Shown here piece by piece: positions 6,727-7,827 of a stretch of DNA of 64,000 nucleotides (the stretch's first letter is position 1; every line of letters begins with the position of its first letter). The notes beneath the pieces were generated by a model. The model had not been told where the DNA came from. It saw nothing but the letters and a program-made list of their open reading frames with translations, and did no database searches. This stretch comes from Saccostrea echinata (lineage: Eukaryota), in contig NW_026889782.1 of assembly GCF_033153115.1 (NCBI RefSeq), positions 25,110,001 to 25,174,000 of the forward strand, written 5' to 3'. Made by a program: the position numbers and the translations under genes.

Positions 6727-7827
6727 GTGCAAAAATTCAAATGCACATTGTGTGACGGACGAGAGTTCAAGCAGAACAACATCTAACCGCCACCCATTCG
6801 GGATTCGGTTTCCAGTGTTCGGTGTGCAAGTACATTTTATCCAGAAGAAATCAGAAACACAACTGCGAAGGCTACGTGGCATTATCTGTCAAGAAATCCA
6901 CAATGACATTTAATGAAGCTGATAAGAGAGAGTTTGCAGAGTTCCAAAGAAACCGCTATAGGTTCGTTGAACCTTTCATGAAAAAAATATCCCCCAAATA
7001 TGTATAAAGGGTACACAGGAAAGAGGACAATCAGAGTTAACCACGAAGGGCCCCTGCCGAAGCGACAAAAGCCGTCGTCAAAGCAACAAAATGTGTCTGA
7101 ACCAACTGGTGTGACAAGAACTGTTGTAACAAAGGCAACGGAAACTACATTTCCATCAGCCGAAGTTCCAGCCGTAACATCTATTCCACAGACCAGAGCT
7201 CTATCGACACCACCTGAAAAACAGGCTCCACAAAAGGATAGGACAGTCAACAGAAGGCTTTTTGATGATACATCGTCCTCGTCGTCCTCCAGCCGCTCTT
7301 CCTCCAAAAGGTCATCGACAAATTCCTTGGAGAGCCCTGATATCTCAGTGCGTGGAGCAGAACCGAGAGTTTCGAAGAACCCTGCAGCTCTGGAGTACGA
7401 AGTGGCTGACCTTCCGGCACCGGCATATAACCCGACAGACAAAAGGGAAATAATGATAAAGAGCCTGGAAATACAACAGAAGGAAAGAATAGTGTTGAAC
7501 GTCGGAGGAAGACGATTCGAGACAAGTAAACAAACCATGCAAGCAGACCCGAGCTCTATATTATTGGCCATGGTAGCAAAAGACCTTTGTGCAACAAATA
7601 ATGACACAAAAACCTTTTTCCTAGATAGGAACCCTCGTTATTTCGACTTCATACTAGATTACCTCAGATCGGCGACGTACAACTCCAAAGTCCTCCCATA
7701 TGACAAGTCCATCCTCCGGCAAATCCATGTGGAGGCGACATACTATGGATTAACAGGGCTTGTTCATGCCGTTGAGGAGAGAGCTAAGGGAAAGGATGTT
7801 CCTCAGCCTGGTCTGTGGGATGACTAA
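6727..7827 (+). pseudogene. Retrotransposon ORF3: C2H2/C2HC zinc fingers + Ser/Thr/Pro-rich linker + KCTD-type BTB/POZ (T1) domain; two apparent frameshifts
   Basis: Acceptor ttacag|GTG at 6726/6727; KFKCTLCD..(fs)..AEQHLTATHSGFGFQCSVCKYILSRRNQKHNC; frameshift near the A-run at ~6985; ORF 7000-7827 ends with IVLNVGGRRFETS..FFLDRNPRYFDFILDYLR..EATYYGL. Confidence 0.85.

Follow-up and report, generated by a model that had tools for sequence, protein, structure and literature searches.

A Ty3/Gypsy LTR retrotransposon at the start of the analysed stretch of Saccostrea echinata DNA (64,000 nucleotides, henceforth the window) carries behind its integrase an accessory third gene (ORF3) of a new architecture, which by analogy likely works in the manner of the plant anti-silencing protein VANC without being a member of that group. 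Equally new is a family-specific motif, GGGA, GGGT or GGTG, that is repeated on both strands in related families and extends even to synonymous sites of pol. We lean, if only slightly, towards the reading that ORF3 encodes a nuclear, multimeric zinc-finger protein that would bind motif arrays in its own element and thereby keep the element transcribed. In a full-text search of the literature for Gypsy or LTR retrotransposons in combination with BTB, KCTD, mollusc or extra ORF, judged on titles and the opening parts of abstracts and covering sources other than Repbase, Dfam and most subscription journals, we found no such gene. The main text of a survey of molluscan LTR elements (C-clade, AB and MolGy1-16; PMC6238403) contains no BTB, zinc finger or additional ORF, and PMC7736800 deals with BTBD6 and not with ORF3.

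The element displays the Pfam order protease, reverse transcriptase, RNase H and integrase (PR-RT-RH-INT). Its LTR pair, at window -218..1009 and 11935-13139, aligns over 1230 positions, 10 of them mismatched and 23 with gaps. It has TG..CA LTR ends, a polypurine tract and a 4-bp target duplication, and the LTR and duplication features could be read in all seven copies of its family, designated A. The features are as follows, in window coordinates:

1..1009, plus strand: 5' LTR, starting 218 bases before the window, about 1228 bp, delimited by the LTR-pair alignment
290..295, plus strand: TATA-like box, putative LTR promoter, at the same position ahead of the leader in other families
371..409, plus strand: coding leader exon, predicted exon 1 of ORF3, 13 codons with phase-0 donor TGG/GTAATT
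410..1180, no strand: LTR behind the donor and 5' UTR, the array region in related families, with no clear array in family A
1012..1029, plus strand: primer-binding site, presumably of tRNA-Leu type, one base different from all 6 sisters
1181..2536, plus strand: gag, broken here, 460 codons open in 6 of 6 sisters
2430..6484, plus strand: pol (PR-RT-RH-INT), broken here, 1354 codons open in 2 of 6 sisters
6727..7000, plus strand: ORF3 N-terminal domain, with C2H2 finger, HSGF linker, C2HC finger, strand and helix; frameshift near 6768
7001..7440, plus strand: ORF3 segment of basic, NLS-like character, then a disordered linker rich in Ser/Thr/Pro; the second frameshift is near 6991
7441..7827, plus strand: ORF3 helix, KCTD/T1-type BTB and stop, Pfam match at 7489-7761
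7662..7845, minus strand: exon 2 of a spliced antisense RNA of the family
7865..10908, no strand: unrelated nested insertion, located in a T run that follows the ORF3 stop and containing a tandem array of 168-bp units
11921..11931, plus strand: polypurine tract
11935..13139, plus strand: 3' LTR, leader copy at 12524-12562, target duplication at 13140-13143

The location of ORF3 had been recognized in an initial annotation of this DNA, and we could confirm that it lies in sense orientation behind the integrase and a CAG splice acceptor at 6726/6727, with the CxxC..HxxxxH and CxxC..HxC finger motifs followed by a low-complexity linker and a complete C-terminal BTB domain (BTB_2, E 2.4e-18, model positions 1-89 of 94). 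The single reading frame ascribed to it there does not exist in this copy: indels near 6768 and 6991 divide ORF3 into three pieces over two frames, and the gene is dead here. In five of the six sisters it is a single open frame of 408 codons from stop to stop, and in two of the six gag, pol and ORF3 are all open, with LTRs 99.4-100% alike. The protein had also rightly been separated from env, since the highest 19-residue Kyte-Doolittle mean is 0.68 in the window copy and 0.5-1.3 across six families, and neither a signal peptide nor a transmembrane segment was found. The 3' LTR stands 4.1 kb from ORF3 in the window because of a separate 3-kb insertion after the stop codon (about 7865-10908), which is missing from all six sisters and leaves the BTB outside it. 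This insertion starts with a palindrome, has a hairpin near its end, and contains 9.6 copies of the 168-bp unit (8179-9790), which is open for 380 codons in one frame; we take it to resemble a Helentron-associated non-autonomous element. A search with the LTR gave 27 matches of at least 90% among 40 scored, 14 of which belong to the seven full copies. The empty-site form of one sister insertion is present in two sequencing runs (L048:785-789), so family A is polymorphic for insertion. A short motif, GAG[AC]CCCAC after CAG, is kept near the 3' ends of otherwise unalignable LTRs (about 960-975 in the window, and likewise at the LTR ends in families B, C, D, F and J). Elsewhere in the window, at 18204-19305, 57-bp inverted repeats 988 bp apart and flanked by TA runs likely delimit a small DNA transposon.

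A search at the DNA level recovered seven copies at 98-100% and one at 68%, and a protein search of the S. echinata genome gave 120 matches. The best 30 loci listed represent 26 distinct places, and in 21 of these an integrase precedes the match by no more than 1.5 kb on the same strand. ORF3 occupies this slot in about ten diverged Gypsy families of the genome, and further families share 47-85% identity with family A in pol and 25-65% in ORF3; no gag or pol was found near the five cellular BTB_2 loci. Over nine elements, the integrase and N-domain identities are correlated (Spearman 0.84, Mantel p 0.0005). A public protein identical to one ORF3 of this genome is assigned to S. echinata itself. 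Public relatives that contain the finger domain together with the BTB, or portions of these, come from Ostrea edulis, Magallana gigas, M. angulata, S. cucullata and Pinctada, and further from three Mytilus species, Pecten, Ruditapes, Mercenaria and the gastropod Gigantopelta; their linkage to pol rests on four gene models (P0238, P0260, P0293, P0330) in which the relative is fused to integrase, reverse transcriptase or gag. Between family A and its close subfamilies synonymous sites are saturated, with dN of 0.10-0.18, while omega is 0.09-0.36 in family B pairs, its intervals include 1 in three short comparisons within family D, and the variant codons of family A comprise 23 synonymous and 16 non-synonymous ones. 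These comparisons indicate that purifying selection acts on both domains of ORF3.

Identity of the family-A BTB to 11 sampled cellular BTB_2 sequences amounts to 26-42%, and the BTBs of six element families are at most 45% identical to sampled cellular ones. In a tree of 52 BTB sequences, after removal of 15 near-duplicate or partial rows, the element BTBs grouped with the KCTD type, apart from the T1 domains of Kv channels; the tree has 2 changes, with the element BTBs on one side of a branch in 44% of bootstraps, and neither establishes a single origin nor points to a donor gene. The suggestion that ORF3 is a family-level gene and not a fresh capture is thereby borne out. Of the contrary observations envisaged with it, namely a BTB confined to this copy, near-identity to a host KCTD, neutral evolution and a separate insertion with its own target duplication around the BTB, none was made.

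In a structure model of ORF3 the N-domain (residues 1-90) is confidently predicted, with a pLDDT of about 90, and a disordered stretch separates it from the BTB; Pfam returned BTB_2 and a weak zf-C2H2 alone. Finger 1, CxxC..H..H, with C6, H23 and H28 invariant, adopts the beta-beta-alpha fold in this model (pLDDT about 90), and in family D a zf-C2H2 match is seen at an E of 2e-4, under the cut-off. The second finger, CxxC-x10-H-x1/2-C, has a non-canonical spacing and no helix in the model. When the N-domain was compared with known structures, C2H2 zinc fingers, for the most part bound to DNA, made up 20 of the 24 best matches, albeit with weak Z scores of 3.5-5.2; the best Z in VIA was 5.2, and the Atlas gave unnamed and C2H2 clusters. 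Foldseek searches of the PDB and of viral structures gave nothing with an E under 0.001, the best E against the viral set (BFVD) being 0.12. After the N-domain, a bipartite NLS-like motif is present in 16 of 25 homologues, against 5.3 expected.

The LTR region behind the leader donor contains arrays of short words in both orientations, such as TGGGA in family B (12 against 1.6) and TGGGT in family C (12 against 1.9), and the U3 region shows no such excess in five of six families. We compared these words with an approximate C2H2 recognition code, in which finger 2 (Arg at -1, Asp at 2) presumably reads G and finger 1 three bases through positions 6, 3 and -1. With this assumed code, Arg-His-Gln would give GGGA (families B, I and J; F has Asn at -1), Arg-His-Leu would give GGGT (C and D), and Arg-Ala-Ser or Arg-Leu-Arg would give GGTG (E, G and H). 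In the post-donor region the predicted word ranks, among 136 4-mers, first in B and D, second in C, E, F, G, H and J, and fourth in I, while swapped words do not rank 1-4, the nearest being GGGA at 7 in E. The rule was set on families B-E and had been noted before the LTRs of G, H, I and J were inspected. The motif agrees with the prediction in 9 of 12 families; these nine matches are not independent and represent about three changes of motif, and the correspondence is for that reason suggestive, not proof.

The excess extends over whole elements, with TGGGA at 79 against 23 in B, TGGGT at 61 against 24 in C, and AAGGTG at 23 against 4.7 in G. At synonymous sites of pol the word is again in excess in B (25 against 9.8, rank 1 of 512) and C (29 against 13.8, rank 2), and in the pol frames tested from A, D, E, F and G no clear excess was found (ranks 12-181). 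The motifs of B are evenly divided between strands (40 and 39), and those of C, D and G are strand-biased, lying mostly on the strand opposite to the genomic RNA. Family H (L086:8414-9031), which has the finger domain without a BTB, carries a CGGTGC array in its LTR. For family K, GGAG is expected and one of the four positions is missed, with GGTG at rank 6 and GGTA over the whole element. No clear or G-rich array was found in the window's own family A, which has Gln at -1, 3 and 6, or in its subfamily A2. In four A-group elements AGGG is 1.2-1.6-fold in excess, against 0.66-1.13 in nine others. Two candidate words for family A were discarded, TCAGG (5 against 0.6), the conservation of which against A2 is not above background (footprint test, p 0.24), and GACA (p 0.08). 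In three Gypsy elements without ORF3 the top words reach only z 3.3-3.6. A hallmark of the VANC type, motifs amassed within the element that are specific to the family and change with the protein, is therefore seen in nine of 12 families and is unclear in family A.

The BTB finds KCTD10, 16, 13, 1 and 5 as its matches by fold and sequence, and its best solved relatives are KCTD5 (E 9e-21) and KCTD9 (7e-20). This brings up the proposal of the initial annotation that ORF3 is a CUL3 adaptor or decoy, with its fingers binding a soluble host restriction or silencing protein that would then be degraded. Two BTB copies co-folded with the N-terminal part of CUL3 scored 0.43, against 0.03 for the best control, with contacts agreeing to at least 88% and partner pLDDT of at least 81; alignments were left out of this co-fold, and the CUL3 used is identical to that of the host over the exon tested. 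On the scale of such co-folds, 5 out of 78 solved complexes score 0.60 or under, as do all 4 of the mismatches that pass, and since like complexes are solved the pass may reflect memory. PMC10856315 lists KCTD5, KCTD9 and KCTD17 as CUL3 adaptors and KCTD1/15 and KCTD8/12/16 as non-binders, and states that the two kinds are not told apart by global similarity; the non-binders KCTD16 and KCTD1/15 are nearly as close to the ORF3 BTB by sequence and fold. Thus CUL3 binding itself is weakly favoured by the modelling, and the removal of a soluble host factor as the main function is not borne out. The latter leaves the co-variation of finger and motif, as well as the BTB-less family H, unexplained, and we regard it as unlikely. 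It is the element's own DNA that is indicated as the target, because the N-terminal module resembles DNA-binding C2H2 fingers, an NLS-like motif follows it, and its helix residues co-vary with the arrays in the element.

Twenty further integrase matches were examined, of which six proved to be elements without ORF3, eight to have other zinc-finger ORFs and one to belong to family E. The ORF3-less elements (L164, L165 and L166-L169) are derivatives of B (two examined, 92.5% identical) and G (four examined, 98%), with open pol, LTRs 99.5-100% alike and the arrays kept. ORF3 is consequently not needed in cis. As these derivatives transposed recently, ORF3 may be dispensable rather than borrowed. 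A presumed rule that loss of ORF3 accompanies loss of the leader failed: one of the six (L165) lost the leader ATG and donor, and five kept both.

The family moreover produces an abundant six-exon antisense RNA (L048:789-9210) that starts between ORF3 and the 3' LTR on the minus strand. On a sister copy it is represented by five CT..AC joints, four of them found in all of four runs and the fifth in three, which identifies them as minus-strand GT-AG introns; these have good pyrimidine tracts, and the joint depths are well above those of unspliced contigs. Besides exon 2, the exons lie at 11227 onward, 6000-6119, 5071-5129, 2421-2567 and from 1314 back through the 5' LTR. Exons 2 and 3 are stopped in all three frames and the last exon has two ATG frames of more than 40 codons; the RNA is apparently non-coding. 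Its first donor falls within a block 80% conserved with a diverged relative, and the window copy is without one of the donors. The joints could conceivably derive from a processed DNA copy instead of RNA.

These observations bear on the view that ORF3 binds the arrays and represses, as a self-limiting control of copy number comparable to the nuclear KCTD1/15 or ZBTB repressors. It shares all the evidence for predicted binding with the reading we prefer, the arrays are densest just behind the transcription start, the ORF3-less derivatives spread recently, and the abundant spliced antisense RNA would fit. Against this, the B derivatives, diverged by 7.5%, retain 78-79 sites in 6.7-6.9 kb compared to 79 in 7.9 kb in B itself, i.e. 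an equal or higher density, whereas escape from a repressor would favour the loss of sites. We judge repression, too, to be unlikely.

ORF3 has no ATG between the acceptor and the fingers, and it therefore needs an upstream exon. Families A, A2, B, C, D, E, F, G, I, J and K have such a leader in the LTR, where 7-15 codons run from the first ATG after the TATA box to a phase-0 donor. The ORF3 acceptors checked are likewise in phase 0. Family H has a donor but no leader ATG, its leader being non-coding, and starts from its own ATG after the acceptor. The ORF3 product is thus likely made by splicing of the LTR leader exon across gag-pol, a prediction from sequence that agrees with the M. gigas model P0200 (UniRef A0A8W8NV49), in which a leader peptide like that of family G is joined to the start of ORF3. 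Of 12 sequencing runs listed, 11 contain part of the stretch, and none that is on record as RNA contains it. In contigs from four runs of three studies, their kind being presumed, that were compared with the sister copy, the joints listed include none of the GT-AG type in sense that ends at the ORF3 acceptor, which proves neither its absence nor silence, and contigs of the same runs cross the acceptor unspliced. A leader rule permitting GC donors picked a different site in family E, a stricter pattern overlooked G and K as well as decayed copies, which were afterwards read by eye, and an 'MPPCMW' leader match in C33b was set aside as chance, being far from its element. By pattern, no leaders were found in other Gypsy families with finger genes. 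In family G (L148/L149) the primer-binding site differs from that of families A-F; we take the former to be of tRNA-Lys and the latter of tRNA-Leu type.

With the donor about 120 nt downstream of the TATA box, gag-pol amounts to an intron of the ORF3 message, and this lends itself to a factor in the manner of Rev or CERV, one that would bind the unspliced genomic RNA and allow its export or block splicing at the LTR donor. The parallel is CERV of the C. elegans element Cer1, described in PMC10309623 as spliced and nuclear, with a cysteine finger, and as predicted to form a ring of at least five subunits. Such a role sits poorly with motifs that occupy both strands and, in families C, D and G, for the most part the one opposite the genomic RNA; furthermore, the 5' leader of family A is no more stably folded than shuffled sequences (z -1.2), and Rfam and tRNA scans gave no match. 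We therefore hold it to be quite improbable. That ORF3 is a decoy poisoning host KCTD oligomers, or a near-neutral passenger, may draw on the hetero-oligomers formed by KCTDs (PMC10531988) and on the six ORF3-less derivatives that transposed recently, but is very improbable in view of the purifying selection that acts on the two domains, the retention of ORF3 across molluscs, a gastropod as well as oysters, and a finger domain kept without the BTB in family H.

We accordingly return to ORF3 as a nuclear reader of the arrays of its own element. In this mechanism the two fingers would read a site of 4-6 bp and the KCTD-type BTB would oligomerize, so that one complex could grip several weak sites at once and tell an array from stray sites in the host genome. 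The bound complex would then counter silencing or activate the LTR, possibly bringing CUL3 to the locus. If, as we suppose, ORF3 works in trans, copies that lack the gene and keep the arrays could use the protein. Binding, the oligomeric state and the direction of the effect, activation as opposed to repression, are all predictions of this model.

The same slot holds a zinc-finger ORF without a BTB in eight elements of other Gypsy families. Six of these (L172:1201-3117, L173:1352-3055, L174:7024-8757, L176, L178:1842-3254 and L181:7036-8142) have a post-pol ORF of 470-640 aa with tandem C2H2 fingers, the shared C-terminal domain of which corresponds to no Pfam or Atlas family, and L175 and L183 have small finger ORFs. 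A very strong excess of TTGGT/TGGTC (z 7-9) was seen in L170, L171 and L182; L171 has a post-pol frame of 260 codons with no known domain, missing from L170 and L182. As the pair L170/L171 combines a strong TTGGT excess with no recognizable finger gene, arrays may also serve host factors. A wider scenario, which we offer tentatively and with somewhat less confidence than an even one, is a VANC-like arms race in molluscan Gypsy elements: a private finger reader mounted on a captured KCTD oligomerizer, a genome rewritten to match it down to the synonymous codons of pol, silencing lifted, perhaps through CUL3, gene-less cheaters borrowing the protein, and other Gypsy families doing likewise with unrelated finger genes in the same slot.

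Several known systems share parts of this arrangement. ZBTB transcription factors join a BTB oligomerizer to tandem C2H2 fingers through a disordered linker, which are the same parts as in ORF3, and the best, though weak, matches of the N-domain include ZBTB finger-DNA structures; in ORF3, however, the order is reversed, the BTB is of the KCTD type, and there are no more than two fingers, of which the second is a short, atypical C2HC. From the KCTD proteins, with which it shares a T1-type BTB_2 by sequence and fold, ORF3 differs in having the BTB C-terminal, behind a finger domain and disordered linker, and no KCTD C-terminal domain. Third genes after pol that are expressed from a spliced subgenomic message include env of errantiviruses and retroviruses, Tas of foamy viruses and Vif and Vpr of lentiviruses; Tas binds its own LTR DNA, and Vif and Vpr use cullin ligases. 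Unlike these, ORF3 combines the lack of a signal peptide or membrane segment with the lack of any viral sequence or fold match.

CERV is, according to PMC10309623, likewise an accessory protein of a Gypsy-type element; it has a spliced message, as is predicted for ORF3, together with a nuclear signal, a cysteine finger and a predicted ring-forming domain. It is encoded in the gag region and has exons in common with gag, its H, M and G domains are unrelated, and it acts in RNA export, whereas ORF3 stands in the env slot and has its predicted start codon in the LTR. VANC of the Arabidopsis VANDAL DNA transposons is described in PMC5735166 as a trans-acting anti-silencing protein whose family-specific motifs evolve with it. 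ORF3 resembles it as a factor encoded by the element with short family-specific motifs that accumulate in the element, its action in trans being our supposition. VANC belongs to a plant Mutator-like element and has motifs of 8-9 bp in non-coding tandem repeats and a demonstrated effect of demethylation (PMC5735166), whereas ORF3 belongs to an animal LTR retrotransposon, has C2H2-like fingers and a KCTD BTB, and is matched with motifs of 4-6 bp that occur in coding sequence as well. No homology to VANC was found in the Pfam search and none is claimed; the likeness lies in the predicted mode of action.

To our knowledge, sequence-specific counter-defence by a transposon protein has been shown mainly for the plant VANC. 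The dozen natural families described here constitute a ready matrix of finger residues against motifs, and because of this the proposed recognition can be tested by simple binding assays. Many of the molluscan gene models labelled 'KCTD-like', 'trichohyalin-like' or 'potassium channel regulatory protein' are this retrotransposon gene. For the elements themselves, the finding points to a Gypsy clade in which a captured KCTD domain has been kept across molluscs, a gastropod as well as oysters, with a start codon that is likely supplied by the LTR.
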